DNA from: a virus
DNA: 58,493 nt
Virus record (IMG/VR): IMGVR_UViG_3300029479_000005
Reading direction: 5' to 3' (one strand)
Shown here: piece by piece, positions 1 through 58,493 of the stretch
Layout: each line of letters opens with the position of its first letter
Position numbering within the stretch: the first letter of the stretch is position 1
Notes under the pieces: model-generated
The model's database searches: none
What the model saw: only the letters and a program-made list of their open reading frames with translations
What the model was told of the DNA's origin: nothing
Made by a program: the position numbers and the translations under genes

Positions 1-949
1 AATCGATGCTGAAAAGCACAAATTAGATTATAAACAATCCGAAAAAGACAACGATATAGCCTTGCTAAAGAAAACCTACCAACGCCATCAAAACATGGAT
101 GGAGAAGTAAAGGAGAGTGGGGCATCAACTCTACTATCAAGACGTAAGCAAGAGACTCAAGTGCCTGAAAGAAAAGGTTCAGGAAGAATAAATCAAAAGG
201 GAAAGAGTTGGTATGATCCTACCAAACCTGAGGGAACTATATTATACAAAGAGTCAGGCAGAACATATGTTGATCCGAAGACCGGGAAAACTAAGCAAGC
301 AATGACAAATGTATCGTTGATGTCAGTAATAGACGACGCACATAAGCTGTCATCGGGACACCCTAAGGAAAATGCATATGCTGATTATGCTAATAAAATG
401 AAAGCTATGGCTAACGATGCTCGTAAGGAGGCGGTATATACTGGTAGACTTGCTACTAATGCAAATGCCAAACGTATCTATCAGTCAGAAGTGGATTCAT
501 TAAATGCAAAACTAAATCTTGCCGCACTTAATGCACCGAGAGAAAGAAGAGCTCAAGTTCTTGCTAATTCTGAAGTAAAGGCGAAAAAACAGGCTAATCC
601 TGAATTAGAAAAAGATAAGAAAGCATTGAAAAAAGTAAAACAAATTGCAATTAACAAGGCTCGTATAGCAGTCGGTGCAAGTGGAAAGGGCACACGAATT
701 AACATAACAGACAAAGAATGGGAAGCTATTCAGTCTGGCGCAGTAAGTGATTCTAAATTGACAAAGATACTAAGGTATGCGGATCAAGATGTAATAAGAC
801 AAAAGGCTACCCCTAAGTCTAATGGTGCGCTATCCTCTGCTCAAGTTAGTAGAATCAAAGCTTTGGCTGCATCAGGTTATACAAATGCTGAAATCGCAGA
901 AGTTTTAGGAAAGTCAACATCAACAGTTTCAAAATATCTAAATAGTTGA
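1..949 (+). CDS. C-terminal portion of the wrap-around two-barrel (YonO/beta'-like) RNA polymerase gene. The gene continues from 56587..58493 across the circular junction, giving 918 aa in total. Ends with a sigma-70 region-4-like HTH.
   Basis: I translated frame 2 by hand from 56587 through 58493 and it reads without a stop straight into 62..949. The C-terminus reads SAQVSRIKALAASGYTNAEIAEVLGKSTSTVSKYL, a close match to a sigma region 4 / LuxR-type HTH. Confidence 0.6.
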   Translation, partial: IDAEKHKLDYKQSEKDNDIALLKKTYQRHQNMDGEVKESGASTLLSRRKQETQVPERKGSGRINQKGKSWYDPTKPEGTILYKESGRTYVDPKTGKTKQAMTNVSLMSVIDDAHKLSSGHPKENAYADYANKMKAMANDARKEAVYTGRLATNANAKRIYQSEVDSLNAKLNLAALNAPRERRAQVLANSEVKAKKQANPELEKDKKALKKVKQIAINKARIAVGASGKGTRINITDKEWEAIQSGAVSDSKLTKILRYADQDVIRQKATPKSNGALSSAQVSRIKALAASGYTNAEIAEVLGKSTSTVSKYLNS

Positions 950-26424: not shown

Positions 26425-26453
26425 TTTACAAAAAATGCGGATTATGATATAAT
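26425..26453 (+). promoter_or_regulatory. sigma-A-type promoter TTTACA-N17-TATAAT with an extended -10 TG
   Basis: TGATATAAT read directly; it is divergent from the minus-strand promoter. Confidence 0.6.
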
Positions 26454-26488: not shown

Positions 26489-26959
26489 GTGAATGTATAT
26501 AAAAAGATAAGGCAAGAAAGCGGATTATCCAGAGAAGAAGTATGTGCTATGACAGACGACAACGGAGTACGAAAGATTGATGCATCACGACTTGAACGTA
26601 TCGAAAATGATAAGTTACGCATTTATCCGAACGAAGTAGTAATTTTATCTGAAGTTTATGATAAACCTATGTTGTGTAATAAATATTGCACAGAGGAATG
26701 TGAAATAGGTAAACGATATGTTTTTCCTATTGCTGACAAAGAATTGGAACTGGAAAAAATAGTTTTACCGTTAATTGCATCACTAAATTCTATAAAACGT
26801 CAACAGGAAAGGTTAATAGAAATAAGTTCAGACGGTAAAATTGATGAGAGTGAACTAAGCGATTTTGTGAAAATCGAAACCGAACTTCAAAATATTTCGA
26901 AATCTATCGAAACTTTAAAAATTTGGACAGAAAAAGAACTTAAACATACGCAAAAATAA
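26489..26959 (+). CDS. XRE-family HTH transcriptional regulator with a C-terminal coiled coil (156 aa; GTG start)
   Basis: The N-terminus KKIRQESGLSREEVCAMT… matches the XRE HTH pattern; GGTGGGGG ribosome-binding site. Confidence 0.6.
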   Translation: MNVYKKIRQESGLSREEVCAMTDDNGVRKIDASRLERIENDKLRIYPNEVVILSEVYDKPMLCNKYCTEECEIGKRYVFPIADKELELEKIVLPLIASLNSIKRQQERLIEISSDGKIDESELSDFVKIETELQNISKSIETLKIWTEKELKHTQK

Positions 26960-27042
26960 CAGCTCCTATTATGGAAAGGAGTGATAAGTTATGATTACTT
27001 GTGAATATGGAATCAAACGTATAAAGAAATAAACAAAAACCA

Positions 27043-27074
27043 AAGAGTCCTAACAAGGGCTCTTTCTTTTTTTT
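27043..27074 (+). terminator. rho-independent terminator, member of the GAGTCCTAACAAGGGCTC hairpin family (copy 1 of 7)
   Basis: 8-bp stem, AACA loop, and a T-run. Confidence 0.7.
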
Positions 27075-28972: not shown

Positions 28973-30439
28973 ATGGCGAACAAAATCTTATTAAGAAGAG
29001 GGTTAAAATCTAAATTGCCAACTCTTTCGGCAGGAGAACCGGCATATACCACCGATTCTCGTGAATTTTTTATGGGCACCGGAAGTGGTAATGTGAATAT
29101 GGGTGGAAGTCAATGGTATACGGGTACTGCTATGAGCGGCACCAGTACATCAAGCACATATTCGTATACTTCTTGCCCATTGGTTAAAGTTGGCGATATT
29201 TATCTAAACACTTCGTACGGATATATTTATCAATGTACTACCGCCGGAAATGGAAGCAGTGCTAAATGGGTCTATAAAGGCACAATCAGGGGCCCGCAAG
29301 GTGCGACAGGTGCGACTCCAAGTTATTTCCCGAGCAACGGATATTCAAGTATAGACGACTTAACATTAGATGTAGTTGATTTAAAAGGTGAACACTTAGC
29401 ACCGCCTACAACAATTACAATCGGTTGTGTGGATTCAAAACATCAATGGCTGGTCGATTATGTTTGTATGGACGGACAAGATCATTCTGCAATATTTAAG
29501 AAAGCTATTGATGCATTACCATCTAGCGGTGGTAAGATTACAATTTTGGAAGGAAGTTATTCCATTAAAAATACTATATCGTTTAGTAGTAAAAAAGTAG
29601 TGTTTGAGGGCATGGGTTCCGGGACAAGTATAAACGTCAATGGAACTTTTGTAACATCAGGTGGTAACAACAATATAACAATAAGAGACATCGATATTGT
29701 GGCATCTAATGTCGATGGTGGCATATTCGATTTGACAAATACGGACAAGATCAATTTAGATAATTGCAGTATGTCTGTTTCAATAAAATCCGGAATTGTT
29801 ACGAGTACCGACGTAACAGCAGCTGTCAATGGTAGTGGCAACACAGATGTACATTTTAACAATTTGTCATTAACAGCCACATTTAATGCGAATGACGGCG
29901 AATGCGGTGCTGTATTTCGTTATTGTAATGTGCATGGCGATATGTCTAAGATAAAAGTAACAAGAGCATCCGGATGTGATTACAATGTCAATACCTTTAT
30001 GGTTTGTAAAGGTAGGGTGACAAATACCAGCTTGATGAGTGATCATTTCATATTGCATGGCACGGACCCTTTTGTTATTGATAACTGCTATGTGAAATGT
30101 TATTCCATAACACAAATTGAATATGATAACCGCGGAAGTGTAATCAATTCAAGGATTTACATAACAGGAAAAAACACTATATATTGGGCATTAACGCAGA
30201 TTGCAAATTGTCAAATATCTATACCTTATACAAAGACAAAAATCTTATGTAAGGCAGAGATGTTTAATAACAATAAGATAGAAAATAGTGCAAGTAATAT
30301 GTTTGTTTTCTCGCAGTATGCAATTATAGTGGGAAATAAATCAAAATGCACTATGACATCGTCTACCCCTACAGGTGCAGTTATAGCTAATAATGTAGTG
30401 GATTCCTATATGTCCAGTATTCTAACGGGAGAAGAATAA
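28973..30439 (+). CDS. tail fibre / receptor-binding protein with a right-handed beta-helix (pectate-lyase-like, possible depolymerase) domain
   Basis: The N-terminus MANKILLRRGL… is paralogous to the previous gene. Repetitive N/T/G/V/I/D-rich strands such as NITIRDIDIVASNVDGGIFDLTNTDKINLDNCSMS follow. Confidence 0.55.
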   Translation: MANKILLRRGLKSKLPTLSAGEPAYTTDSREFFMGTGSGNVNMGGSQWYTGTAMSGTSTSSTYSYTSCPLVKVGDIYLNTSYGYIYQCTTAGNGSSAKWVYKGTIRGPQGATGATPSYFPSNGYSSIDDLTLDVVDLKGEHLAPPTTITIGCVDSKHQWLVDYVCMDGQDHSAIFKKAIDALPSSGGKITILEGSYSIKNTISFSSKKVVFEGMGSGTSINVNGTFVTSGGNNNITIRDIDIVASNVDGGIFDLTNTDKINLDNCSMSVSIKSGIVTSTDVTAAVNGSGNTDVHFNNLSLTATFNANDGECGAVFRYCNVHGDMSKIKVTRASGCDYNVNTFMVCKGRVTNTSLMSDHFILHGTDPFVIDNCYVKCYSITQIEYDNRGSVINSRIYITGKNTIYWALTQIANCQISIPYTKTKILCKAEMFNNNKIENSASNMFVFSQYAIIVGNKSKCTMTSSTPTGAVIANNVVDSYMSSILTGEE

Positions 30440-32156: not shown

Positions 32157-32372
32157 ATGAAAATGAATGACAAGACGTATGACGTATTGAAATGGATTGC
32201 TACATATCTATTACCTGCTTTGGGAACTTTATATTTTGCTTTGGCACAAATATGGAATCTTCCATATGGCGAACAAGTTGTGGGATCAATAACCGCAATA
32301 GATACATTTCTGGGAGTTGTATTAGGTTTAAGTACAAGCCAATATAATAAACAGAAAGAGTCAGATAACTAG
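32157..32372 (+). CDS. holin (71 aa, 2 predicted TM)
   Basis: Hydrophobic helices at LKWIATYLLPALGTLYFALAQIW and ITAIDTFLGVVLGLS; lies immediately after the endolysin. Confidence 0.6.
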   Translation: MKMNDKTYDVLKWIATYLLPALGTLYFALAQIWNLPYGEQVVGSITAIDTFLGVVLGLSTSQYNKQKESDN

Positions 32373-32582
32373 CAGTTTGATGTTATGCGACCGTATCAGA
32401 AATAAAAAAGTATAGGTTAAACATACACTATACATACATTTTTGATCTCAAAATGGCTTGAAACCTAACTTTATATGTTTCCGTAGAGGAAGCTGCAAAG
32501 GCTGGTAAGTTCTAATAAACATAGTAAGCATGCGTGTTTACGGAGTGGTAAAAAGTTAAAAAAGGTGGAGTAATGTATGCAA

Positions 32583-33875: not shown

Positions 33876-33920
33876 GTTTTTTCTCTCCTGTCATAGTTTT
33901 TAGCAAAAATTATACATCAA

Positions 33921-33943
33921 AGTGTAGGAATTGTCAACTCCTA
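33921..33943. promoter_or_regulatory. perfect 7-bp inverted repeat TGTAGGA-N9-TCCTACA in the integrase upstream region (operator / arm-type site). The half-site is the same as the repeats at 32583-32626.
   Basis: Read directly. Confidence 0.5.
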
Positions 33944-33946
33944 CAT

Positions 33947-34283: not shown

Positions 34284-34313
34284 TTAACACTAATACGCGA
34301 AATTTACAAGGCG
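34284..34313 (+). promoter_or_regulatory. member of the repeated promoter-like motif family (TACGCGAAA-N10-TATTATGAAG)
   Basis: Copy 1 of 11; lies upstream of the tRNA-like element. Confidence 0.35.
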
Positions 34314-34316
34314 TAT

Positions 34317-34390
34317 TATGAAGAGAAAGACATTAGCTCAGTTGGTAGAGCGGCAGATATATCTATCTGAGGGTCGCAAGTTCGATTCTT
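34317..34390 (+). tRNA. tRNA-like element: canonical D-arm (GCTCAGTTGGTAGAGC) and T-arm (GCAAG-TTCGATT-CTTGC), but an imperfect acceptor stem and a non-canonical anticodon loop. Either a phage-encoded tRNA, or the 3' tRNA-derived part of attP.
   Basis: Folded by eye. The acceptor stem has 2 mismatches. The anticodon stem CAGAT/ATCTG closes a 6-nt loop ATATCT. Confidence 0.4.
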
Positions 34391-34545
34391 GCATGCCATT
34401 CTCTTTTTTATAAAACCAACATCGTAATTTATATTTAGGAAAGGAGTTTTTTTGATTACAGAAAAAAGTGGATATTTCCACTCGATGTGTTTTTACAAGA
34501 AGTCATTTTTAAGCTAGAATAGCAGTTGAAAGGAGACGAACGCAG

Positions 34546-34830
34546 ATGGAAAAACAAAACATTAACCAAAAAGAACCAATGAATGAGGTTAAATTTGCCG
34601 ATGGATCTGTACCAGTTGCAGTAGCAGCAAGAGTATATGGAAAAGAGGCACATTGGGTTAGAGCTGGAATTATAGTTGGTTGGTTACCAATAGGAACAGC
34701 TACGAGAAAGGGTCAGGTTGTAAAAACTATAAAAGAAATGGATTCAAGATATGGTAGAATCAACTATTATATTTCGCCTAAGAAGTTATACGAAGACACT
34801 GGCTACATATGGAAGGGAGAAAAAAGATAA
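34546..34830 (+). CDS. hypothetical protein (94 aa)
   Basis: GAAAGGAGACG ribosome-binding site. Confidence 0.5.
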   Translation: MEKQNINQKEPMNEVKFADGSVPVAVAARVYGKEAHWVRAGIIVGWLPIGTATRKGQVVKTIKEMDSRYGRINYYISPKKLYEDTGYIWKGEKR

Positions 34831-34831
34831 G

Positions 34832-35248
34832 ATGAGCACGACTATACGACCAAAAATTTCTGAAAAGAACAAATACTACATCGATAAACATCGTTATTAC
34901 GAATTAAAGCATTTTTGTTTACAGTACCCATTATGGGAAAAGCAATATAATGAGTTAATGAATATTACCAAAATTTCCGATTTAAAGAAAAGTAGTCGAA
35001 CAAATAAGATAACCGATTATACAGCTGAAACTGTAGAAAAAAGGTTATATTATCGCGAAAGAATGGATGTGGTTAACAAGGCTACTCAAGATGCAGATAC
35101 TGAATTGGCAAGTTATATTTTTAAAGCCGTTACACAAGGATTATCATATGAAGCTCTTCGATTACAAATGAATATGCCTTGTTCAAGGGATATATATTAT
35201 GATAGATATAGACGATTCTTCTATTTGTTAAGTAAGTATAGAAGATAA
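34832..35248 (+). CDS. putative sigma-like / ArpU-family phage transcriptional regulator (138 aa)
   Basis: Aromatic-rich N-terminus (YYELKHFCLQYPLW). C-terminal region-4-like HTH (GLSYEALRLQMNMPCSRDIYYDRYRR). Confidence 0.35.
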   Translation: MSTTIRPKISEKNKYYIDKHRYYELKHFCLQYPLWEKQYNELMNITKISDLKKSSRTNKITDYTAETVEKRLYYRERMDVVNKATQDADTELASYIFKAVTQGLSYEALRLQMNMPCSRDIYYDRYRRFFYLLSKYRR

Positions 35249-35294
35249 ACCTACGCATATTTATCATATCCTATTATGATAGGAGGAGATAAAT

Positions 35295-35591
35295 ATGAAC
35301 AATACACTTAGCAAACTTATGAATAAGTTCATAATCAAAACTCATCATTTTATTGTATTTGAAGATGATGTACTAAAAACCATAGAGGTTATCAACAAAA
35401 ATCGGAATTGCGTCAAAATATTATTATATGGACGTATTAGGATTTGGTCAGATGGCCGTATATGGCATATAGTATTTAAAGCTTCTAATACCGAATGGTG
35501 CTCATTGATAAACGAACTGAAAGTTATTCGAGTTTGGGATATTTCTTGTATTCCTAAAACTACGAACGGTAGTATTTATTCAACAGATTAA
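35295..35591 (+). CDS. hypothetical protein (98 aa)
   Basis: GGAGGAG ribosome-binding site. Confidence 0.5.
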   Translation: MNNTLSKLMNKFIIKTHHFIVFEDDVLKTIEVINKNRNCVKILLYGRIRIWSDGRIWHIVFKASNTEWCSLINELKVIRVWDISCIPKTTNGSIYSTD

Positions 35592-35596
35592 AGAAT

Positions 35597-35633
35597 TGAG
35601 TCCTAACAAGGACTCTCTTCTTTTTTTTTTTTT
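35597..35633 (+). terminator. rho-independent terminator, GAGTCCTAACAAGGACTC family (copy 2)
   Basis: 7-bp stem, AACA loop, and a long T-run. Confidence 0.7.
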
Positions 35634-35663
35634 GCACGAAAAAAACATATCTCTTTATGAAGA
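35634..35663 (+). promoter_or_regulatory. promoter-like motif family member (GCACGAAAAAAACA-N6-CTTTATGAAG)
   Basis: Copy 2 of 11. Confidence 0.3.
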
Positions 35664-35702
35664 AAATAGTAGTTAATATTACTAAAAATGGAGGTATGAA
35701 TT

Positions 35703-35939
35703 ATGAAAAGAGTATTAACTAGTATAGCATTAGTGGTATGCACAATAGCAGTTTGTATCGGTTTATATAAAGTCGGATACGATAGCGGAGTTAGTAATGG
35801 TTACAAACGTGGAATTACGGATGGAAAAATCATGAGAAACGAAGAAATCGAAAAGGAAGTTAAAAACCATATGTACAAATTGGGATCATATTACGGAATT
35901 GATGGTATCACAGTTGATTACTACATAAAGAAAAGATAA
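35703..35939 (+). CDS. small membrane protein (78 aa, N-terminal TM)
   Basis: GGAGGT ribosome-binding site; hydrophobic segment ALVVCTIAVCIGLY. Confidence 0.5.
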   Translation: MKRVLTSIALVVCTIAVCIGLYKVGYDSGVSNGYKRGITDGKIMRNEEIEKEVKNHMYKLGSYYGIDGITVDYYIKKR

Positions 35940-36063
35940 CATATTAACCACTAATTAAAAAAAAGGGGAAAGTCTGAGGAAACTTGGACTTCTCTTTTTT
36001 TTTCAGCACACAGGTTACAATAATATATGTTATTTTATTATTGTGGTAAAGGATAGATAAGAA

Positions 36064-36092
36064 CCGCATAAAAAACAGTTTCTTTTATGGAA
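36064..36092 (+). promoter_or_regulatory. promoter-like motif family member (CCGCATAAAAAACA…TTTTATGGAA)
   Basis: Copy 3 of 11. Confidence 0.3.
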
Positions 36093-36127
36093 CTATGAAA
36101 AATTATATTTTTGAAAGGAGAGCTAAA

Positions 36128-36595
36128 ATGAAAAAAAACATTAAAGATTTGTTAGATGAGGAAATTATAGCACAAATTGAAAGTCTAAAAACGCTAGATG
36201 ACGGATCGAAAGAAAAGCAGTCAGCAATAGATGATTTAAACAAGTTGTACCGTTTAAAAATCGATGAGACTAGAATGGGGCTGGAATTTGAAGAAAAGAA
36301 AGAACGACGCGAGATGGAAAATACTCTGCAGTCTGATGAGTTAATAATAAAAGAAAAACAATTAGATGCAGAAAACGATGCTCGTAGTTGCGAGGAACAA
36401 TTCAAAGCAGAACAGCTTAAAGAACAGGTTAAAGATCGATATTTCAAAGTGGGAATAGCAGCTGCAGAAATCATAATACCGATTGTGTTTTATGGGGTCT
36501 GGCTAAAGAGAGGTTTTAAATTCGAGGAGACTGGTATATTTACCTCAACAACATTCAGAAGTTTATTCAATCGTTTTAAACCGACTAAGAAATAA
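36128..36595 (+). CDS. coiled-coil protein with a C-terminal TM (155 aa)
   Basis: GAAAGGAGAG ribosome-binding site 8 nt upstream of the ATG at 36128. Confidence 0.5.
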   Translation: MKKNIKDLLDEEIIAQIESLKTLDDGSKEKQSAIDDLNKLYRLKIDETRMGLEFEEKKERREMENTLQSDELIIKEKQLDAENDARSCEEQFKAEQLKEQVKDRYFKVGIAAAEIIIPIVFYGVWLKRGFKFEETGIFTSTTFRSLFNRFKPTKK

Positions 36596-36654
36596 TATTT
36601 ACAATGCAGTTCTAAACGAGGAGACGCGTTATATGCGCGCACTCTTCGTTTTTC

Positions 36655-36685
36655 TCCGCAAAATTTACAAGGCATATTATGAAAG
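36655..36685 (+). promoter_or_regulatory. promoter-like motif family member (CCGCAAAATTTACAAGGCATATTATGAAAGG)
   Basis: Copy 4 of 11; almost identical to copy 1. Confidence 0.35.
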
Positions 36686-36697
36686 GAAGTGTTGAAC

Positions 36698-36877
36698 ATG
36701 AGAAACAAAATCAAAACATTCTTAAAGGACAAGAAAAAAGAAATTATTATGATTGGAGCGGTATTGACTACAGCTTGTATTGGCGGATATATAGGGGCTA
36801 ATACGGGAAATCGTTATGCACAATTTCATATTAATTTAATTGGTCCTGATGGGGATAAAATAAAAGAGATTGTTTAA
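36698..36877 (+). CDS. small membrane protein (59 aa)
   Basis: AAAGGAAG ribosome-binding site; hydrophobic segment IIMIGAVLTTACIGGYIGA. Confidence 0.45.
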   Translation: MRNKIKTFLKDKKKEIIMIGAVLTTACIGGYIGANTGNRYAQFHINLIGPDGDKIKEIV

Positions 36878-36884
36878 CGTTGGC

Positions 36885-36911
36885 GAAAGATCGAGTCCTA
36901 ACAAGGGCTCT
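36885..36911 (+). terminator. rho-independent terminator, GAGTCCTAACAAGGGCTC family (copy 3)
   Basis: Hairpin plus T-run. Confidence 0.65.
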
Positions 36912-36931
36912 TTCTTTTTCGGGAGGAAAGA

Positions 36932-37294
36932 ATGCGGTATCATTACGAAAAACCACCTATTTACTTATCAATGTATGGAAAACTATATATTTGTAATCAT
37001 CCTGTATATGATAGCTGTACCCTGTTCGAAATAAATGAATTGGGATTAGCTGTTATACAGCAACGGTATGATGCCGAAACCAAAAGCACTTGGTGGAGTG
37101 AGGTTGATCCGTGGCTTACTGATGAAATATATTTGAATCCTTATTTTAAAGGATATTTTGAACAACGATCAAAAAAGTGTTCTGACGACGGCTTATATCC
37201 AACGGTTACAGTTCGGCAAATAATGTGGGCTCTGAAAATGAAGCCTTTATCACGAGAGAGATGGGAAACTGTATTCGATAGACGTGATATTTGA
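36932..37294 (+). CDS. hypothetical protein (120 aa)
   Basis: GGGAGGAAAG ribosome-binding site. Confidence 0.5.
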   Translation: MRYHYEKPPIYLSMYGKLYICNHPVYDSCTLFEINELGLAVIQQRYDAETKSTWWSEVDPWLTDEIYLNPYFKGYFEQRSKKCSDDGLYPTVTVRQIMWALKMKPLSRERWETVFDRRDI

Positions 37295-37296
37295 AA

Positions 37297-37326
37297 TACG
37301 CATAAAAAACAATGTGTATTATGGAA
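37297..37326 (+). promoter_or_regulatory. promoter-like motif family member (TACGCATAAAAAACAATGTGTATTATGGAA)
   Basis: Copy 5 of 11. Confidence 0.35.
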
Positions 37327-37366
37327 ACAATAGACCAAGAGTTTATATTTTGAAAGGAGAATTATT

Positions 37367-37585
37367 ATGTTAGAAACATCAAAAAAATTATTCCGGGAGA
37401 TTGGAGAGGTAGGATTTTTAGTGAGTAAGCTAATTGAGGAGAGACCAAACGATCCTTTAATAGCTATGATCGCTTCAAAAACCGCCGAACTAACTACAAC
37501 AGGAATGGCATGTATGGATAAACAAAGGGAATTCACAGGCAGACTTGAAAAATTACTCAATTCTGTTGTTCCCAATGAACAATAA
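37367..37585 (+). CDS. small protein (72 aa; MLETSKKLFREIGE…), paralogue of 37940..38167
   Basis: The upstream leader and N-terminus are duplicated at 37863-37960. Confidence 0.55.
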   Translation: MLETSKKLFREIGEVGFLVSKLIEERPNDPLIAMIASKTAELTTTGMACMDKQREFTGRLEKLLNSVVPNEQ

Positions 37586-37592
37586 GGAAACA

Positions 37593-37621
37593 GAGTCCTA
37601 ACAAGGGCTCTTTTCTTTTTA
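37593..37621 (+). terminator. rho-independent terminator, GAGTCCTAACAAGGGCTC family (copy 4)
   Basis: Hairpin plus T-run. Confidence 0.65.
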
Positions 37622-37622
37622 T

Positions 37623-37654
37623 ACGCACGATAAACACTCCCTTTTATGAAAGGA
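37623..37654 (+). promoter_or_regulatory. promoter-like motif family member (TACGCACGATAAACA…TTTTATGAAAGG)
   Basis: Copy 6 of 11. Confidence 0.3.
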
Positions 37655-37665
37655 GACGTGATAAA

Positions 37666-37836
37666 ATGTTTTTAATGGCAATTTTATTAGTTATGCTGAT
37701 TCTCTTAACAGCTTTTATTATAATGGCTGTAGGCACAGGAGGTGCTATTTGCATTATAGTATTCGGAGATGTAATCGTATGCATAGCAGGAATAATATGG
37801 TTTATAAAAAGACAATTTGACAAAAAATCTCATTAA
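37666..37836 (+). CDS. small hydrophobic membrane protein (56 aa; MFLMAILLVMLILLTAFIIMAVGTGGAICIIVFGDVIVCIAGIIWFIKRQFDKKSH)
   Basis: Translated by hand; AAAGGAG ribosome-binding site 9 nt upstream; below the size cutoff of the supplied ORF track. Confidence 0.5.
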   Translation: MFLMAILLVMLILLTAFIIMAVGTGGAICIIVFGDVIVCIAGIIWFIKRQFDKKSH

Positions 37837-37842
37837 AGAATT

Positions 37843-37870
37843 GAGTCCTAACAAGGACTCTCTTCTTTTT
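37843..37870 (+). terminator. rho-independent terminator, GAGTCCTAACAAGGACTC family (copy 5)
   Basis: Hairpin plus T-run. Confidence 0.65.
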
Positions 37871-37900
37871 ACGCGAAAAAAACAATGTGTATTATGGAAA
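37870..37900 (+). promoter_or_regulatory. promoter-like motif family member (TACGCGAAAAAAACAATGTGTATTATGGAA)
   Basis: Copy 7 of 11; consensus copy. Confidence 0.35.
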
Positions 37901-37939
37901 CAATAAACCACGAGTTTATATTTTGAAAGGAGAATTATT

Positions 37940-38167
37940 ATGTTAGAAACAACAAACAAATTAATCGAAGAAATGGATGAACTAAAAAAGATGGTAATGA
38001 CGGAGGTTATTCACGGCAATATCGATATAGATATAGAAGATATGTCGGAAATCAAATTCTTAATGAAATCTTTTAAGGCATTAAATTTAAGTATGAGATT
38101 AATGAAAGAACAGGCAGAAAAACTTGATTCGATGGAAGAAAAACTCGATAAATTATTGTCGAAGTAA
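37940..38167 (+). CDS. small protein (75 aa; MLETTNKLIEEMDE…), paralogue of 37367..37585
   Basis: Duplicated cassette. Confidence 0.55.
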   Translation: MLETTNKLIEEMDELKKMVMTEVIHGNIDIDIEDMSEIKFLMKSFKALNLSMRLMKEQAEKLDSMEEKLDKLLSK

Positions 38168-38179
38168 CAATAAGGAAAC

Positions 38180-38216
38180 AGAGTCCTAACAAGGGCTCTT
38201 TTCTTTTATTTTTTCT
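38180..38216 (+). terminator. rho-independent terminator, GAGTCCTAACAAGGGCTC family (copy 6)
   Basis: Hairpin plus T-run. Confidence 0.65.
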
Positions 38217-38236
38217 GATGGGAGGAGGTGAATAGA

Positions 38237-38995
38237 ATGAATAAATTATTAAGTAAAACAGGATGTTTCTTTAAGAAAAACGTAGCTACCATTCTTACTG
38301 GTATAGGTACGGCAGGTGTAGTTATTACTGCTGTTAGTGCAATTAAAGCGACACCTAAAGCTTTATATTCTATAGAAGAAGCAGAAAAAGAAAAAGGTGA
38401 TAAATTATCGAATAAAGAAAAAATCATAACTACGACTCATATATATCTACCTACTATAATTATAGGTGTTTCAACTATAGCTTGTATATTAGGTGCAAAT
38501 GTTTTAAACAAAAAGCAACAAGCATCTCTCATAAGTGCATATGCTTTGCTACAAAAATCGTATAATGAATATCGCGATAAAGTTGATGAGTTGTATGAGA
38601 ATAGCAGTATTGTAGATAAAGAGATAGCAAAAGATGTTTATGATAATACAAAACCATCGGTATCGTCTGATGAAAAATGTTTATTTTATGATATGTTTTC
38701 AAAAAGATATTTCGAATCAAATAAAGTAGATGTAATAGCGGCAGAGTATCATTTTAACAGGAATTTCACATTGCGTGGGTATGCTACGTTAAATGAACTA
38801 TATGAGTTTTTAGGCGTTGATAAAATCGATGGTGGAGATTCCATAGGTTGGAGTATAGATGCCGGTTTGGCATTTTATGGCTATAGCTGGGTTGATTTCG
38901 AACACGATTTTGTAACGACCGATGACGGTATGGAAGTATGTTTGATTTCCATGCCATTTGCGCCAACATCCGACTATCTCGATAGTTGGTTGTGA
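38237..38995 (+). CDS. 2-TM membrane protein, paralogue A of a three-member family (252 aa)
   Basis: Shares the N-terminal TM (…ILTGIGTAGVVITAVSAIKATPKA), a second TM, and the C-terminal motifs (YD.FSKRYFES; LNELYEFLG…GW.ID) with 39555..40316 and 42000..42941. Confidence 0.6.
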   Translation: MNKLLSKTGCFFKKNVATILTGIGTAGVVITAVSAIKATPKALYSIEEAEKEKGDKLSNKEKIITTTHIYLPTIIIGVSTIACILGANVLNKKQQASLISAYALLQKSYNEYRDKVDELYENSSIVDKEIAKDVYDNTKPSVSSDEKCLFYDMFSKRYFESNKVDVIAAEYHFNRNFTLRGYATLNELYEFLGVDKIDGGDSIGWSIDAGLAFYGYSWVDFEHDFVTTDDGMEVCLISMPFAPTSDYLDSWL

Positions 38996-39025
38996 ACACG
39001 CGTAAATAACAATCTCTATTATGAA
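38996..39025 (+). promoter_or_regulatory. promoter-like motif family member (CACGCGTAAATAACAATCTCTATTATGAAG)
   Basis: Copy 8 of 11. Confidence 0.3.
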
Positions 39026-39041
39026 GGGAGGTGAATGCTTT

Positions 39042-39194
39042 ATGATAAACATTAAGCAAATAATGAAAGTAGCAAAACCGCTTATATCAGTATTAGCTAT
39101 CGCAGTACCGATTGCGAGCAGTTTGACAGAAAAAGCGGAAATGAAAGAAACAATTGCAAAAGAAGTAGCAAAAGCAGTCGCTGATAAACAATAA
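39042..39194 (+). CDS. small protein with an N-terminal TM (50 aa; MINIKQIMKVAKPLISVLAIAVPIASSLTEK…)
   Basis: Translated by hand; GGGAGGTG ribosome-binding site; below the size cutoff of the supplied ORF track. Confidence 0.45.
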   Translation: MINIKQIMKVAKPLISVLAIAVPIASSLTEKAEMKETIAKEVAKAVADKQ

Positions 39195-39200
39195 GAAAAC

Positions 39201-39228
39201 AGAGTCCTAACAAGGGCTCTTTCTTTTT
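39201..39228 (+). terminator. rho-independent terminator, GAGTCCTAACAAGGGCTC family (copy 7)
   Basis: Hairpin plus T-run. Confidence 0.65.
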
Positions 39229-39247
39229 CTTGAAAGGAGATATGTAT

Positions 39248-39541
39248 ATGAATTCACCCAATAAGGCAGCGGTGGAGATTGTAAAAAATTATACATACTA
39301 TTTAGAGGAATTGGGTATATGGTATGGATATTCTTTTTTAGAAGTTTGCAATTCCAAATGGGCGGCAGAAGAACTTATTGATATTTTATTAAAAGACATG
39401 TCAATACCGCCATTGTGTGTTGTCGAGAGGTTTAGAGATGAAATGTATCGACTTTCTACACTGAATAAAAAGACAGAACACGTATTCTCAATAGCAGTTT
39501 GTGTTGCTGAGGATATTATGGATCAATTAATCAATAATTGA
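39248..39541 (+). CDS. hypothetical protein (97 aa)
   Basis: AAAGGAG ribosome-binding site 8 nt upstream of the ATG at 39248. Confidence 0.45.
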   Translation: MNSPNKAAVEIVKNYTYYLEELGIWYGYSFLEVCNSKWAAEELIDILLKDMSIPPLCVVERFRDEMYRLSTLNKKTEHVFSIAVCVAEDIMDQLINN

Positions 39542-39554
39542 AAGGAGAAATATT

Positions 39555-40316
39555 ATGTCTAAAAATTTGTCAATGATAACGAAAAATATAGGCAGAAAAT
39601 TAAAAAAGCACAGCCCTGAAATATTAACAGGTATAGGAATTGCAGGTATGATTTCGGCTACGGTGATGGCTGTGAGAGCAACTCCCAAAGCTTTACAAAA
39701 TATTGAACATGAAAAAAAAGAGCAGAATGTAACTAAGTTACCACTTATTGAAATGGCAAAATGTACTTGGAAATCTTATATTCCATCAGCGGTAACTATA
39801 ATTGTTTCTTCGGTATGCTTAGTTGGTGCTTCTACTGTTAGCTTTAAAAGAAACACTGCTTTAGCAACTGCTTATGCTATGACAGAGGCTACATTAAAAA
39901 GCTACCAAGAAAAAGTAGTGGAAACTATAGGTGAAAAGAAAGCAGACGCAATAAAAACGAAAGTTGTAAAAGAAAAGATGGATAGCAATCCGATAAATAA
40001 TAAAGAGGTGATAATTACAACCAAAGGAGATACACTTTGTTATGATTCAGTGAGTGGTCGATATTTTAAATCAGATATAGACACTATTAAAAAAATAGTA
40101 AATGAACTAAACAGGCGAATGCTTAGCGAGTCGTATATATCTTTGAATGATTTCTATTATGAACTCGGGTTGAGTTTTACTAAAATGGGTGACCAATTAG
40201 GTTGGAATATAGATAGAGGTCTAATAGATATATCATATGTGCCACTATTGGCGGACGATGGAAATCCGTGTTTAGCTATGGAGTACACAGTTTCACCGGA
40301 GTACGATTATTGTTAA
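39555..40316 (+). CDS. 2-TM membrane protein, paralogue B (253 aa)
   Basis: Motifs KKHSPEILTGIGIAGMISATVMAVRATPKA and …LNDFYYELG…LGWNIDRG. Confidence 0.6.
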   Translation: MSKNLSMITKNIGRKLKKHSPEILTGIGIAGMISATVMAVRATPKALQNIEHEKKEQNVTKLPLIEMAKCTWKSYIPSAVTIIVSSVCLVGASTVSFKRNTALATAYAMTEATLKSYQEKVVETIGEKKADAIKTKVVKEKMDSNPINNKEVIITTKGDTLCYDSVSGRYFKSDIDTIKKIVNELNRRMLSESYISLNDFYYELGLSFTKMGDQLGWNIDRGLIDISYVPLLADDGNPCLAMEYTVSPEYDYC

Positions 40317-40322
40317 ATTAAA

Positions 40323-40352
40323 TACGCGAAAAAAACAATGTGTATTATGGAA
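40323..40352 (+). promoter_or_regulatory. promoter-like motif family member (TACGCGAAAAAAACAATGTGTATTATGGAA)
   Basis: Copy 9 of 11; identical to copy 7. Confidence 0.35.
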
Positions 40353-40395: not shown

Positions 40396-40638
40396 ATGAA
40401 TGAAGAACTTATGACAAATGACGAAATTGAAGTAGTCGGAGAACCAGAGGAAGTAATGGACGAGCGTTCAGGTATGCCAACAGGATTGGCTATGCTTATC
40501 GGAGGTGGAATAACATTGGCAGTAGTAGCCGGTGTTAAGAAGGTGAAGAATGTATTAGTCAAGCGTAAGGCAAAGAACGAAGAACCCGTTATGGTGGTTT
40601 CGGATAATGAAAATGAAATCATTGAAGAGGAAGAATGA
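40396..40638 (+). CDS. small membrane protein with acidic termini (80 aa)
   Basis: AAGGAGG ribosome-binding site; TM at GLAMLIGGGITLAVVAGV. Confidence 0.5.
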   Translation: MNEELMTNDEIEVVGEPEEVMDERSGMPTGLAMLIGGGITLAVVAGVKKVKNVLVKRKAKNEEPVMVVSDNENEIIEEEE

Positions 40639-40730
40639 TCCAAATAAAAACTGAACAGAATTCGAAAAAGGGAAGATACCTTTAACTAGGTATTTTCTCT
40701 TTTATTTTTTATTGAGAGGAATATCGCAGA

Positions 40731-41999: not shown

Positions 42000-42941
42000 A
42001 TGAATGCGAAAATTACAATAAATAGAATAGGATTACAAATAAAAAAACACAGCCCTGAAATCATGATGGTTGCAGGTGTTGTAGGAACTGTTGTGGGCGC
42101 TGTTATGGCTTGTAAAGCAACTACTAAAATCGATGATATATTGAACGAGACAAAAAACAACGTTGACAAGATACACGCTGCTGAAGAAAAAGGCCAAATA
42201 ACTACCGATAAAGATGGTGAACTTATAATTGAGGAGTATACAGCGGACGATTGTAAAAAAGACTTAAGTATAACATACGCCAAAACAGGTCTGGAATTAG
42301 CTAAGATTTATGCGCCGGCAGTCGTGTTAGGAGCAATAAGCATCGCGTCCATATTAGCTGCTCATAATGTACTTCGTAAGCGTAACGTTGCTTTGATGGC
42401 TGCATACACGGCTATCGATAATAATTTTAAAGATTATCGCAAACGTGTTATCACCAGATTTGGTGAGAAAATCGATAAAGAGCTAAAGTGCGGAGTGAGA
42501 ACGGAAAACGTTACCGAAACAATTGTAGATGAAAATGGTGAAGAAAAAACTGTTGAAAAAACAGTTACAATAGTTGATGATGTAACAACATCAGAGTATA
42601 GACGTGTTTTCGATGCCGGTAATGCGGGTTGGGAAAAAGATGCAGACCATAATCTTTTCTTCTTAAGATCAGTTCAAAATTGGGCAAATGAGGTTTTAAA
42701 AGATAGAGGGCATATTTTTTTAAACGAGTTGTACGATCAACTCGGATATGAAAGAACAAAAGCGGGACAAATCGTCGGATGGGTTTATAGACCGGACGAT
42801 GTTGAGTATAAAGGTGATGGCTATGTTGATTTTGGAATTTATGATTATACACAGCAGGTAAATCGCAATTTCTTGGACGGAGACGACCCAACAGTTATAT
42901 TAACATTTAATGTGGACGGACCAATATATGATCTGATATAG
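42000..42941 (+). CDS. 2-TM membrane protein, paralogue C (313 aa)
   Basis: Motifs KKHSPEIMMVAGVVGTVVGAVMACKATTK and …LNELYDQLG…IVGW. Confidence 0.6.
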   Translation: MNAKITINRIGLQIKKHSPEIMMVAGVVGTVVGAVMACKATTKIDDILNETKNNVDKIHAAEEKGQITTDKDGELIIEEYTADDCKKDLSITYAKTGLELAKIYAPAVVLGAISIASILAAHNVLRKRNVALMAAYTAIDNNFKDYRKRVITRFGEKIDKELKCGVRTENVTETIVDENGEEKTVEKTVTIVDDVTTSEYRRVFDAGNAGWEKDADHNLFFLRSVQNWANEVLKDRGHIFLNELYDQLGYERTKAGQIVGWVYRPDDVEYKGDGYVDFGIYDYTQQVNRNFLDGDDPTVILTFNVDGPIYDLI

Positions 42942-45090: not shown

Positions 45091-45258
45091 ATGGACAAAA
45101 CAATTATCGAACTACATATGACGGTAGATCGTTTAAAAAATATTGAAGAATGCTTGAACAAACAAATCGCATTTCGAAGAAAAGTAACAGTGGCAGTTTT
45201 GCTTGCAGGAACTTATGTAATTTATAAAAAGATAAGGAGTAAACAGAATAATGATTGA
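45091..45258 (+). CDS. small protein with a C-terminal TM (55 aa); overlaps the polymerase start
   Basis: Translated by hand; GGAGGTGA ribosome-binding site 6 nt upstream. Confidence 0.35.
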   Translation: MDKTIIELHMTVDRLKNIEECLNKQIAFRRKVTVAVLLAGTYVIYKKIRSKQNND

Positions 45259-48200: not shown

Positions 48201-49234
48201 CAAAACGGTTTCAGGAAATAAGAGATGCTCGTGTTGCAATTAAGCACAATGATTTTGAGACTGCCAAAACAATGCTGGATGGAAAGTTAGCAAAGTATCT
48301 TACAGACGAGGGAGCTGCAGCAGATTTGGCACAAGCTTTGAAAATCGCTATTAATTCAGTTTACGGTTTAACAGCAGCAAAATTTGATAATCCATTTAAA
48401 GATAATCGAAATGTCGATAATATTGTCGCAAAACGTGGCGCTTTATTCATGGTTAACCTAAAACATGAAGTACAAGCAAGAGGATTCACAGTTGCTCATA
48501 TAAAAACCGATTCAATAAAAATTCCAAATGCAACGTCTGAAATTATTCAGTTTGTATCGGATTATGGTAAAATGTATGGTTATATATTTGAGCATGAGGC
48601 TACATACGACAGAATGTGTCTTGTAAATGATGCTGTTTATATCGCAAAGTATAAAGACGGAAAGCATGCCGGAGAATGGACTGCCACGGGAACACAGTTT
48701 CAAGTACCATATGTATTCAAAACGCTGTTTAGTAAAGAAGACATTGCTTTTGAGGATATGTGCGTAACAAATAGTGTGACTTCTAGTTTATATTTGGATA
48801 TGAATGAGAAATTGCCTCAATTAACAATTGAAGAGGAAAAAGAATTAGCAAAATTACATAAGGCTTTGGATTCTGAAGATTCTGAGAATATGGAAAAAGT
48901 GCTTAAGTCGTATAGGTATGATGCTGAATATGCCAGCGAAAGATATTCTGAACTTCGTAAAAAAGAGGAAGAATCGCATAACTATGTATTTATCGGAAAA
49001 GTCGGGCAATTTTGCCCTATAAAACAGGGATGTAATGGCGGACTTTTAATGAGAGAAAAAGACGGCAAATATTATGCCGCAGGAGGTAGTAAGGGATACA
49101 GATGGCTTGAAGCCGAGATGGTAAAGGAACTCGGAAAAGAAGCGGATATCGATCGCTCTTATTATGAAAATATGGTCAACGATGCCATTTGTGATATTTC
49201 ACAATATGGTGATTTTGAATGGTTTGTAAATTAA
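45251..49234 (+). CDS. fused SF3 helicase - archaeo-eukaryotic (AEP) primase - family-B DNA polymerase with a 3'-5' exonuclease (1327 aa)
   Basis: SF3 helicase: Walker [10 protein letters not shown] and motif C FMGTN. AEP primase: IDFDIKD and [11 protein letters not shown]. Exonuclease: ExoI FYDVEVF, ExoII FNCRRYD, Exo[11 protein letters not shown]. Polymerase B: motif [10 protein letters not shown], motif [10 protein letters not shown], motif C IKTDSI. Confidence 0.8.
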
Positions 49235-54329: not shown

Positions 54330-54360
54330 TCGCGAAAAATGCAATCACTCTTATGAAAGG
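54330..54360 (+). promoter_or_regulatory. promoter-like motif family member (TCGCGAAAAATGCAATCACTCTTATGAAAGG)
   Basis: Copy 10 of 11. Confidence 0.3.
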
Positions 54361-55589: not shown

Positions 55590-55626
55590 TGACTTTTGTT
55601 AAATGATAATTTATATTTTTTATTGA

Positions 55627-55660
55627 GAGCTTGTGTTAACTACGCAGGCTCTTTCTTTTC
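55627..55660 (+). terminator. rho-independent terminator (AGAGCTTG…CAGGCTCT followed by a T-run)
   Basis: Hairpin read directly. Confidence 0.5.
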
Positions 55661-55661
55661 G

Positions 55662-55692
55662 TACGCGAAAAAAACATGCCCTTTTATGGAGA
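55662..55692 (+). promoter_or_regulatory. promoter-like motif family member (TACGCGAAAAAAACATGCCCTTTTATGGAGAG)
   Basis: Copy 11 of 11. Confidence 0.3.
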
Positions 55693-55763
55693 GAAGGAGA
55701 TATACGTAAAAAAATACGCATCATTTTCTTTTTATATTTTTTGCAGAAAGGAGAATTTAAATA

Positions 55764-56586: not shown

Positions 56587-58493
56587 ATGAGTATTATAGA
56601 CGAAATAAAATCATATTTTGGTTGTGGTTCCAGTGGTAAGGCTTTAGCCCATTATGGTACACCACGACACTCAGGACGTTACCCGTGGGGGAGTGGAGAA
56701 AATCCGTTTCAACATAGCGGAGATTTTCTATCTAGAATAGATGAACTAAAAAAATCTGGTATGACAGAAACGGAAATCGCACATGAATTGGGTTTAAGCA
56801 CTACCCAATATAGAGTGCAAAAACAATTAGCCTCGCATGAGCGACGACAGTTAGAAGTAGATCGTGCTAAATCGTTAAGAGCAGATGGTAAATCTCTTAA
56901 TGAAATAGCAAAGATTATGGGCTATAATAATGATTCGTCCATTCGTTCACTTTTAAACGACAATACTGCTGAAAGAGCAAATCGTGCTCAAAAAGCAGCT
57001 GATGTTTTAAAAAAAGAACTACAGAAAAAAGGAATGATAGACGTAGGTGCTGGTGCAGAGCGAGAGATTGGTATATCGGAAAATACTATGAAAGAAGCTC
57101 TTTATATTTTGGAACGTGAGGGATACAACGTTTATGGTGTAGGAATTCCTCAAGTGACCAATGCCCATCAGCAATCGAACACTAAAGTTTTGTGTAATCC
57201 GGAAATTGAATATAGAGATGTATATCAAAATATGGGTGATGTGCAATCTTTGGGCAATTATCATTCTACTGATGGTGGTGTGACATTCAACGAATTGAAA
57301 AAGCCAACTAGTATAGATTCTAAAAGAATTAGTATATGCTATGGTGATGAGGGCGGTTTGAATAAGGACGGTGTCATTGAAATAAGACGTGGTGTACCCG
57401 ATTTGGATTTAGGAAATTCACACTATGCACAAGTACGTATACTTGTAGACGGTACACATTATTTGAAAGGCATGGCTATGTATTCCGATGATATTCCAGA
57501 TGGAGTAGATATTGTGTTTAATACAAATAAAAAGTCGGGAACCGATAAAATGAATGTGTTAAAACCAATAAAAGATGATCCTGAAAATCCGTTTGGTGCA
57601 TTGATTAAAGCCAATGGTCAAAGTGAATATATAGATCCCAAAGATGGAACTAAAAAACTTTCTGCCATTAACAAACTTAAGGAAGAGGGGGATTGGGATA
57701 CGATGTCAAGAAATCTGTCCCAGCAATTTTTATCGAAGCAACCTTTGAGTTTGATAAAGAAACAGCTGGATTTAACATATGCAGATAGAGAGGCTGAATA
57801 CTCGGAGATAAAATCTCTTACTAATCCGACAGTAAAAAAGAAAATGTTAATGGATTTTGCAAATGATTGTGATGCAGCGGCGGTACATCTACAGGCTGCA
57901 GCATTACCTAGGCAGAATACCCAGGTTATTCTACCTATATCGGCAATGAAAGAAACAGAAGTATATGCTCCTAACTATAAAAACGGCGAACAGGTGGCAT
58001 TAATTCGTTTTCCTCATGGCGGTACATTTGAAATACCGGTATTGACGGTTAATAATAAAAATCCGTCAGCAAAAAGGATATTGGGAAACGTTACAGATGC
58101 CGTAGGAATAAATGCTAAAGTAGCTGAACGACTATCGGGGGCTGATTTCGACGGTGACCAAGTAGTAGTTATTCCTACTAATAATAAGGTTCGTATAAAA
58201 TCAACACCGCCGTTAAAAGATTTGGAGGGATTCGATCCTAAGACTCAGTATGCTTACCATGAGGGGATGAAAGTCATGACTAAAAGTGAAACCCAAAAAC
58301 AAATGGGTATAGTATCCAATCTTATAACTGATATGACACTACGGGGGGCACCTGAGAAAGATATAGCTAAAGCTGTAAAACATAGTATGGTAGTAATCGA
58401 TGCTGAAAAGCACAAATTAGATTATAAACAATCCGAAAAAGACAACGATATAGCCTTGCTAAAGAAAACCTACCAACGCCATCAAAACATGGA
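56587..58493 (+). CDS. N-terminal and central portion of the wrap-around two-barrel RNA polymerase. It runs off the window end and continues at 1..949. It contains two HTH motifs, a beta-like barrel motif, and a beta'-like catalytic motif.
   Basis: The hand translation has no stop through 58493. HTH motifs: MTETEIAHELGLSTTQYRVQKQL and KSLNEIAKIMGYNNDSSIRSLL. Beta-like barrel: GGLNKDGVIEIRRG. Beta'-like: LIRFPHGGTFEIPVLTV…GADFDGDQVVVIPT (compare beta' NADFDGDQMAVHVP). Confidence 0.6.
   Translation, partial: MSIIDEIKSYFGCGSSGKALAHYGTPRHSGRYPWGSGENPFQHSGDFLSRIDELKKSGMTETEIAHELGLSTTQYRVQKQLASHERRQLEVDRAKSLRADGKSLNEIAKIMGYNNDSSIRSLLNDNTAERANRAQKAADVLKKELQKKGMIDVGAGAEREIGISENTMKEALYILEREGYNVYGVGIPQVTNAHQQSNTKVLCNPEIEYRDVYQNMGDVQSLGNYHSTDGGVTFNELKKPTSIDSKRISICYGDEGGLNKDGVIEIRRGVPDLDLGNSHYAQVRILVDGTHYLKGMAMYSDDIPDGVDIVFNTNKKSGTDKMNVLKPIKDDPENPFGALIKANGQSEYIDPKDGTKKLSAINKLKEEGDWDTMSRNLSQQFLSKQPLSLIKKQLDLTYADREAEYSEIKSLTNPTVKKKMLMDFANDCDAAAVHLQAAALPRQNTQVILPISAMKETEVYAPNYKNGEQVALIRFPHGGTFEIPVLTVNNKNPSAKRILGNVTDAVGINAKVAERLSGADFDGDQVVVIPTNNKVRIKSTPPLKDLEGFDPKTQYAYHEGMKVMTKSETQKQMGIVSNLITDMTLRGAPEKDIAKAVKHSMVVIDAEKHKLDYKQSEKDNDIALLKKTYQRHQNM

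Follow-up and report, generated by a model that had tools for sequence, protein, structure and literature searches.

A strand-specific gene-start motif and repeated hairpin terminators in a temperate gut siphovirus, with a phage-encoded two-barrel RNA polymerase as probable reader

The DNA analysed here (the window; IMG/VR virus record IMGVR_UViG_3300029479_000005, 58,493 nucleotides (nt)) carries a motif of about 30 bp that recurs ahead of its genes and a hairpin that recurs behind them, and encodes a single-subunit RNA polymerase of the two-barrel type. The first 99 nt of the window are the same as its last 99 nt (bases 1–99 are duplicated at 58395–58493) and the window is therefore a complete, circularly assembled genome with a full length of 58,394 bp. 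It belongs to a temperate siphovirus related to Faecalibacterium phage FP_oengus, with terminase, tail and lysis genes, a DNA primase-polymerase of 1327 amino acids (aa) that shares 61% identity with its FP_oengus counterpart (open reading frame (ORF) 45251–49234) and, on the minus strand, genes for a tyrosine integrase and a DUF6431 protein. Comparison with related phages identified the motif as a strand-specific signal of gene starts throughout the lineage, and we consider the phage polymerase its probable reader.

A position weight matrix was built from eleven motif copies listed in an earlier annotation made from the letters of the window (the original prediction), with the copies aligned on TTATG. 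Every one of the eleven was real and the matrix added two, at 26945 and 35250, giving 13 copies in the window, all on the plus strand, which scored 20–39 bits, while the next best matches reached at most 7 bits (Table 1). The motif reads CGCR-N7-ACA-N4-CTWTTAT-G, with an A/T-rich stretch between the CGCR box and ACA. The information-rich positions were T-26, C-24, G-23, C-22, R-21, A-14, C-13, A-12, C-7, T-6, T-4, T-3, A-2, T-1 and G+1, followed by purines. A variable spacer of 5–7 nt had been proposed inside the motif; the spacing is actually fixed, at 24 nt from the C of CGC through the T preceding the invariant G.

Table 1. Predicted signals and associated genes in the window. Positions are those of the whole window; motif copies are given from C-24 to A+4, with the position of the invariant G in brackets.
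Feature	Position	Strand	Basis or remark
Hairpin terminator	27045..27062	+	exact 18-mer, fold
Hairpin terminator, A variant	35598..35615	+	exact 18-mer, fold
Hairpin terminator	36893..36910	+	core gene 36932-37294 directly behind, no motif
Hairpin terminator	37593..37610	+	exact 18-mer, fold
Hairpin terminator, A variant	37843..37860	+	exact 18-mer
Hairpin terminator	38181..38198	+	DUF6353 gene 38237-38995 directly behind
Hairpin terminator	39202..39219	+	ORFs 39248-39541 and 39555-40316 directly behind
Distinct terminator hairpin	35970..35991	+	end of 35635-35995 cassette
Strong terminator hairpin	40666..40703	+	-19.6 kcal/mol, past ORF 40396-40638
Terminator hairpin (GAG...CTC and T-run)	55625..55653	+	directly 5′ of promoter copy 55664
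Motif copy (G 26973), unlisted earlier	26949..26976	+	5′ of short ORF ending at hairpin 27045
Motif copy (G 34320)	34296..34323	+	directly 5′ of tRNA-like gene, 38 bits
Motif copy (G 35278), unlisted earlier	35254..35281	+	5′ of ORF 35295-35591, 20 bits
Motif copy (G 35659)	35635..35662	+	head of cassette missing from prophage L279
Motif copy (G 36089)	36065..36092	+	weight matrix
Motif copy (G 36681)	36657..36684	+	weight matrix; Shine-Dalgarno site 3 nt past G
Motif copy (G 37323)	37299..37326	+	weight matrix; within 97-nt repeat
Motif copy (G 37648)	37624..37651	+	13 nt past hairpin 37593
Motif copy (G 37896)	37872..37899	+	11 nt past hairpin 37843
Motif copy (G 39023)	38999..39026	+	weight matrix
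Motif copy (G 40349)	40325..40352	+	weight matrix
Motif copy (G 54355)	54331..54358	+	weight matrix
Motif copy (G 55688)	55664..55691	+	head of nuclease-exonuclease-RNA polymerase operon
tRNA-like gene, truncated anticodon loop	34327..34400	+	7 nt past motif G
Leader hairpin and T-run, possible attenuator of polymerase operon	55688..55740	+	5′ arm from predicted start site
Polymerase gene, 5′ part (918-aa single-subunit two-barrel)	56587..58493	+	runs off window end
Polymerase gene, 3′ part, with C-terminal sigma-region-4-like helix-turn-helix	1..949	+	bases 1-99 duplicate window end
'Sigma-like' ORF, all-helical protein	34832..35248	+	large family restricted to Oengus-like clade
Sigma-A-like promoter TTTACA-17-TAGAAT	34492..34520	+	pattern match alone; 5′ of ORFs 34546 and 34832

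The 18-mer GAGTCCTAACAAGGRCTC was found in seven exact copies in the window, on the plus strand only, where chance would give none. All seven hairpins of the original prediction are thus real, although its start coordinates were wrong by 0–8 nt. Every copy has a T-run behind it, forms a stem of 7–10 bp (-12.8 to -15.2 kcal/mol, z ~ -4) and sits 5–20 nt past a stop codon on the coding strand; with these sequence features, hairpin and T-run look like an intrinsic terminator. The motif had been said to lie about 10 nt behind most hairpins, which holds for three of the seven only (35598, 37593 and 37843, with a gap of 11–19 nt); the other four are followed directly by a Shine-Dalgarno (SD) site and an ORF, with no motif. 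Exact copies of the hairpin also turned up elsewhere, in over 118 IMG/VR stretches and 66 bacterial contigs, the latter mostly from Lachnospiraceae. Related loci that bear the hairpin have the window's integrase-proximal gene module in common, and in related loci a T-run always, and the motif often, follows the hairpin, with 9–13 nt from stem end to motif. An Rfam search of hairpin and motif gave no match, transfer RNA (tRNA) being the sole match. Among hairpin variants of the window's clade, loops of TAACAA or GCAA were favoured, as was a GAG...CTC stem base. A terminator of Arthrobacter phage Mudcat (L195, ~29225–29250; GGGGCCTAACAAGCCC and TTTCTTTTT) has the CTAACAA loop and T-run tail of the window hairpin, despite a host from another phylum than that of the window phage.

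About 1,000 occurrences of the motif were found in related DNA, and they were strand-specific. The related loci, 1.04 Mb in all, gave 618 matches to the weight matrix, 445 of them unique, compared to 2 in shuffled sequence; 612 of the 618 were on the hairpin strand, and the motif was present on that strand in 65 of 66 hairpin-bearing bacterial loci. The host DNA beside the prophage, examined over 8 kb, had no copy. A strict exact-pattern scan of IMG/VR found one contig only, and the weight matrix was required. The motif reads GACGCGAAAAATNCA-N6-CTTTATGG in FP_oengus (14–15 copies), CACAWGTTTTACA-N5-CTATAGTAG in Lactococcus phage 1706 (10 copies, one 5′ of a tRNA), TCGCAWRWWTTACA-N5-CCTATARTGAGACCCC in Streptomyces phage Rima (12 copies, alongside Rima's own repeated terminator CCCCGCAAGGGGTTTGGGTTTCG) and CGCGTAAATTACA-N5-CTATAATG in Mudcat (7 copies). 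The comparison with related genomes that the original prediction proposed thus showed the same motif geometry recurring wherever the polymerase does, 25-nt geometry and polymerase occurring together in five divergent lineages from two host phyla. A nuclease-exonuclease-polymerase operon is headed by a motif copy in the window, FP_oengus, 1706, Rima and Mudcat. Among IMG/VR relatives with enough upstream DNA, all 66 carried a copy 892–1382 nt 5′ of the polymerase gene, and matches upstream of IMG/VR polymerase relatives numbered 135 on the plus strand vs 1 on the minus strand.

The polymerase gene is missed by ORF listings because it spans the genome junction: the 918-aa ORF crosses the 99-nt terminal redundancy (56587..end joined to 100..949). 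Its product is identical (100%) to a database protein and matched phrog_4291, 'RNA-dependent RNA polymerase', over residues 18–917 (E=0); the FP_oengus record annotates the homologue, gp55, in the same way. The predicted fold is a double-psi beta-barrel resembling the large subunits of RNA polymerases, and the catalytic DxDGD loop (S517-G-A-D-F-D-G-D524; GADFDGD 518–524) was invariant across 26 homologues. Helix-turn-helix (HTH) domains are fused at both ends, in the form of two tandem repeats at the N-terminus and an HTH_38/sigma70_r4_2 domain at the C-terminus. A putative polymerase role for the FP_oengus homologue, with HTH domains at either end, had been put forward by Koert et al. (bioRxiv 10.1101/842583; HHpred 95.7%); the words promoter and terminator are absent from their text. 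Judged by its sequence, this wrap-around ORF is the encoded two-barrel RNA polymerase to which the original prediction had referred. Sequence searches of PDB with the polymerase and with ORF 34832 returned no informative match or HTH matches only. Two other ORFs were rejected as the polymerase, namely ORF 45251–49234, which is the primase-polymerase, and the 3241-aa ORF, which encodes the tape measure protein and shows no sign of a P23-45-like fused polymerase. The polymerase family comprises at least 8,000 protein clusters among the matches listed, with a relative encoded in 412 IMG/VR stretches, and its hosts include gut Lachnospiraceae, Faecalibacterium, Lactococcus, Streptomyces, Arthrobacter and Gordonia.

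The non-structural proteins common to all lineages were the primase-polymerase, a helicase, two nucleases, DUF6353 and the polymerase, the last being the only transcription-type protein common to every lineage that keeps the motif. A second reader had been suggested, the sigma-like ORF 34832–35248. This ORF is present in FP_oengus and absent from 1706 and from the examined region of Rima, both of which have the motif, and therefore does not occur wherever the motif does; it resembles sigma-E region 4 and Q-antiterminator weakly, and sigma-70 regions 2 and 4 were not found in it. Going by this distribution, ORF 34832 is not the common reader. The polymerase is the best candidate because it is common to all motif lineages and carries fused HTH domains, whereas ORF 34832 is not common to them. 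The broader proposal of the original prediction, a non-sigma-A promoter class that travels with a phage factor, was supported by the comparison, and the two-barrel polymerase fits that role. In our view, the single-subunit two-barrel RNA polymerase of the phage probably has the motif as its cognate promoter, which would not serve the host sigma-A holoenzyme. The fused HTH domains are likely to read the upstream boxes, which is the most speculative step.

The position of the motif relative to RNA 5′ ends bears on where transcription would begin. In related sequences, 54 of 58 tRNA or tRNA-like genes started 2–5 nt past the invariant G (mode 3), and the acceptor stems of motif-adjacent tRNA genes pair from the first nucleotide. 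An SD-like AGGA or GGAG started 3–4 nt past the G in 158 of 798 unique contexts and otherwise ~13–25 nt past it. Leader or terminator stems of the tRNA-like transcript and of the polymerase-operon leader start at +1 to +3 and covary among relatives, the arms of the latter changing together between GGGAGGAA...TTCCTC and GAAGAGAGA...TCTCTCT (L196–L275). With its T-run, the polymerase-operon leader hairpin resembles an attenuator or short leader RNA. The tRNA-like gene of the window scored 39 bits vs the Rfam tRNA model and has an anticodon arm with a 6-bp stem and a 4-nt loop; in related phages, ~35 of the 58 promoter-adjacent tRNA-like genes have abnormal anticodon loops (2- or 4-nt 'anticodons' in ARAGORN), four have an ochre-suppressor anticodon (TTA) and some have 8-bp acceptor stems. 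These tRNA-like genes may be decoys or non-decoding RNAs.

An alternative that we consider unlikely is that host RNA polymerase reads the motif, with TATTAT/TATAAT as its -10 element and CGC...ACA bound by a phage activator or sigma-appropriating factor (the 918-aa protein or ORF 34832). It would account for the fit to TAnnnT of roughly half the copies in the window clade and of every 1706, Rima and Mudcat copy, for the three HTH modules of the 918-aa protein, one of them sigma-region-4-like, and for the weak resemblance of ORF 34832 to sigma-E region 4 and Q-antiterminator; moreover, a temperate phage needs host polymerase at induction. However, position 2 of a sigma-A -10 element is a conserved A and position 6 a conserved T, whereas the 444 unique copies had A at position 2 in only half of cases (50%), with T in 40%, and FP_oengus copies nearly always had T there (CTTTAT); the T at position 6 was conserved. 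There is no -35 element either, as the DNA 16–18 bp upstream is a T-run or xxTACG of low information and TTTACA lies only 5–6 bp 5′ of the TATTAT-type box; near-consensus sigma-A promoters elsewhere in the genome (33937–33909 and 26425–26453) show the contrast. The TATTAT that the original prediction took as -10-like is also too close to the genes, with 3–6 nt from hexamer to tRNA 5′ ends and 4–5 nt to SD sites. It would not be a sigma-A -10 box because a start 6–9 nt downstream would cut off tRNA 5′ ends, SD sites and leader stems, and one proposed host-directing factor, ORF 34832, is absent from 1706 and the examined Rima region. Taken together, the truncation argument, the variable position 2 and the lack of a -35 element point to a reader other than sigma-A, and we infer that transcription would start at the invariant G or within ~3 nt downstream. 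Two further readings of the boxes were rejected: a sigma-54-like one, for which boxes lie at -24/-12 but match no GG/GC and dozens of activator-dependent promoters would be implausible, and other -10 registers (TACAAT-like around ACA), in which the would-be position 6 is not conserved.

We regard as very unlikely that the motif acts in RNA, within longer transcripts, as a site for processing or cleavage or an element for translation or stability at gene 5′ edges. Its fixed distance to SD sites and tRNA 5′ ends and the pairing of the purine run past G with downstream pyrimidine runs would suit such a role. However, the motif often follows an intrinsic terminator by 9–13 nt, where little read-through RNA would be expected, most of its information lies 12–24 nt ahead of the gene edge, it has neither a conserved RNA structure nor an Rfam match, and it precedes tRNAs, mRNAs and leader RNAs alike. 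Least probable of all is a DNA site apart from transcription, either a priming or origin site for the primase-polymerase or a recombination site or mobile repeat. Primase-polymerase, helicase and nucleases are indeed conserved in every motif lineage and the repeats do mediate indels, but the motif is strictly co-oriented with genes, keeps a fixed distance to tRNA and SD starts, follows terminators and heads the polymerase operon, which neither priming sites nor mobile repeats would be expected to do, and it has no terminal inverted repeats or target duplications.

Several observations weigh against recognition of the motif by the phage polymerase. The primase-polymerase, helicase, nucleases and DUF6353 are likewise common to all lineages, and TATTAT/TATAAT/TATAGT does resemble a sigma-A -10 box (perfect TATAAT in Mudcat), as TTTACA resembles a -35 box. 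For the protein itself, the match to the Pfam RNA-dependent RNA polymerase family PF05183 near the catalytic loop scored 17.4 bits, under the cut-off of 23.8, and the structure model was moderate (predicted local distance difference test (pLDDT) 69, predicted template modelling score (pTM) 0.36). Every functional step is deduced, the support being comparative. Furthermore, the polymerase operon itself depends on the motif, which leaves the onset of expression after prophage induction unexplained. Since the motif heads this operon, the first polymerase would have to come from the virion or from host-driven read-through; delivery by the virion is hinted at by a single label, 'structural protein', given to the homologue in the 1706 record. 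A sigma-70 pattern scan of 40.5–58.5 kb gave 84 matches vs 83 expected, with none above chance 5′ of the polymerase operon.

If the phage two-barrel polymerase does transcribe from the motif, starting at or near the G, leaders would be very short, as tRNA-like genes would begin between +3 and +6 and SD sites would often fall at +4/+5, and the GAGTCCTAACAAGGRCTC hairpin with its T-run would close each small transcription unit. Core genes 36932, DUF6353 38237 and 39248/39555 lie directly behind hairpins and have no promoter of their own; therefore, termination would be incomplete or regulated, so that these genes are read. The whole combination, in which a virion-delivered polymerase uses a self-sufficient and sigma-independent promoter, its fused HTH domains (one sigma-region-4-like) read -24 CGC/-14 ACA, transcription starts at G, the code is conserved between phages of Actinobacteria and Firmicutes, tRNA-like RNAs are near-leaderless and the operon regulates itself through its 5′ leader terminator, is tentative, and we think it possible that all of its parts hold together.

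The original prediction also proposed shuffling or duplication of cassettes, and gain and loss were seen directly when the window was compared to prophage L279 (96–99% identity, with two cassette indels). L279 is without window 35634–35995 (362 nt: promoter, ORF 35703 and terminator), with breakpoints in two terminator T-runs, and contains an additional cassette of 278 nt between two copies of a 64-nt hairpin-plus-promoter unit; this unit corresponds to window 37833–37896 (hairpin 37843, its T-run and promoter copy 37872). In addition, a 97-nt promoter-plus-leader repeat that includes the 37299 copy is 93% identical to 37870–37966 and marks a paralogous gene pair. The small variable ORFs are each framed by their own predicted promoter and terminator, and in distant relatives the core genes are ~70% identical with unrelated DNA in between. 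The repeated terminator-plus-promoter unit would thus serve as a homology patch for gain and loss of promoter-ORF-terminator cassettes.

This arrangement, with terminators joined to promoters among variable ORFs and indel breakpoints within the repeats, is that of the PeSL (promoter-early stem-loop) motifs of T4-type phages, which are composites of a stem-loop terminator and a promoter (Arbiol et al. 2010, PMC2839356; Comeau et al. 2014, PMC4122927). Both systems have terminator-promoter repeats among small variable ORFs that offer homology for indels or swaps between close relatives. In PeSLs the promoter is an early one for host sigma-70 and the phages are large virulent myoviruses of Gram-negatives, whereas the promoter in the window is apparently specific to a phage polymerase, in a temperate siphovirus of gut Firmicutes, and its geometry is found in phages of Actinobacteria as well. 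Among two-barrel polymerases, the closest worked example is P23-45, in which two distinct motifs were assigned to two polymerases, gp96/gp64 (PMC10770324); the promoter of YonO (SPbeta) was still undefined in 2017 and its recognition was left explicitly open (PMC5467207). Our literature search found no description of this promoter or of start sites for this polymerase family.

Like the motifs of the two-barrel phage polymerases (P23-45 gp96/gp64, crAss-like gp66, YonO and the AR9/phiKZ non-virion enzymes), the motif is phage-specific, would lie directly 5′ of starts and lacks the host -35/-10 layout, and the enzymes have the DxDGD double-psi beta-barrel core in common; unlike them, the window polymerase belongs to family phrog_4291, has HTH fused at both ends and would use a motif of ~30 bp (CGC/ACA/TTATG). 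The AACA box of AR9 at -11..-8 and the TATG of phiKZ are only superficially like the window motif. T7-type promoters are similar in being a contiguous block with a TATA-like A/T-rich end, a +1 G and a purine-rich initial transcript, with one promoter per short unit that ends in a hairpin terminator; however, T7 polymerase has a right-hand rather than a two-barrel fold, its promoter extends from -17 to +6 whereas the motif reaches to -26, and the start site here is a predicted one. The motif resembles sigma-A (sigma-70) promoters in its TATAAT-like hexamer and, for many copies, in TTTACA, but the two hexamers are 5–6 bp apart instead of 16–18 and the key A at position 2 is not conserved. Lambdoid morons are autonomous promoter-gene-terminator units between conserved core genes, with host promoters and typically expressed from the prophage; the window units are likewise autonomous and between core genes, but without the phage polymerase they would not be expressed. 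Promoters specific to a phage polymerase are already known as a kind of element, as are cassettes of the PeSL type.

Other features of the genome were recorded as well. In large metagenome contigs, a near-identical prophage (99–99.95%) is integrated beside valS, pfk and a gene of the GGGtGRT family (PF14057), and phage homology starts at ~window 32477; the attachment site lies at ~32460–32477, between ORF 32157–32372 and the integrase gene (L190, L192 and L276–L280; contigs of 63–330 kb). A perfect TTGACA-17-TATAAT at 33909–33937 on the minus strand, 5′ of the integrase gene, overlaps a terminator-like hairpin at 33923–33945. The HTH_3/phrog_6499 regulator ORF 26489–26959, isolated among tail and lysis genes, is a candidate prophage repressor and is preceded by a near-consensus extended sigma-A promoter (TTTACA-17-TATAAT with TG, 26425–26453). 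ORF 52087–52764 matches the Tad3 anti-Thoeris family (PF25185, E 5.6e-31). DUF6353 has three paralogues in the window (38237–38995, 39555–40316 and 42000–42941), each with N-terminal hydrophobic segments as judged by reading the sequence; since it is retained even in Lactococcus 1706 and Streptomyces Rima, DUF6353 provides this phage supercluster with a second signature gene.

YonO, crAss gp66, P23-45 gp64/gp96 and other single-subunit two-barrel polymerases are regarded as minimal relatives of cellular RNA polymerases, and little is known of how they find promoters. With a defined promoter of 25–30 bp and its invariant positions, recognition can be put to a direct test, and hosts that grow in culture are available. 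In thousands of gut prophages, transcription units would be better annotated with the motif at hand, and motif and polymerase are a possible orthogonal pair for Gram-positive hosts. Finally, the cassettes described here show that PeSL-like modular gene exchange extends beyond T4-type phages.

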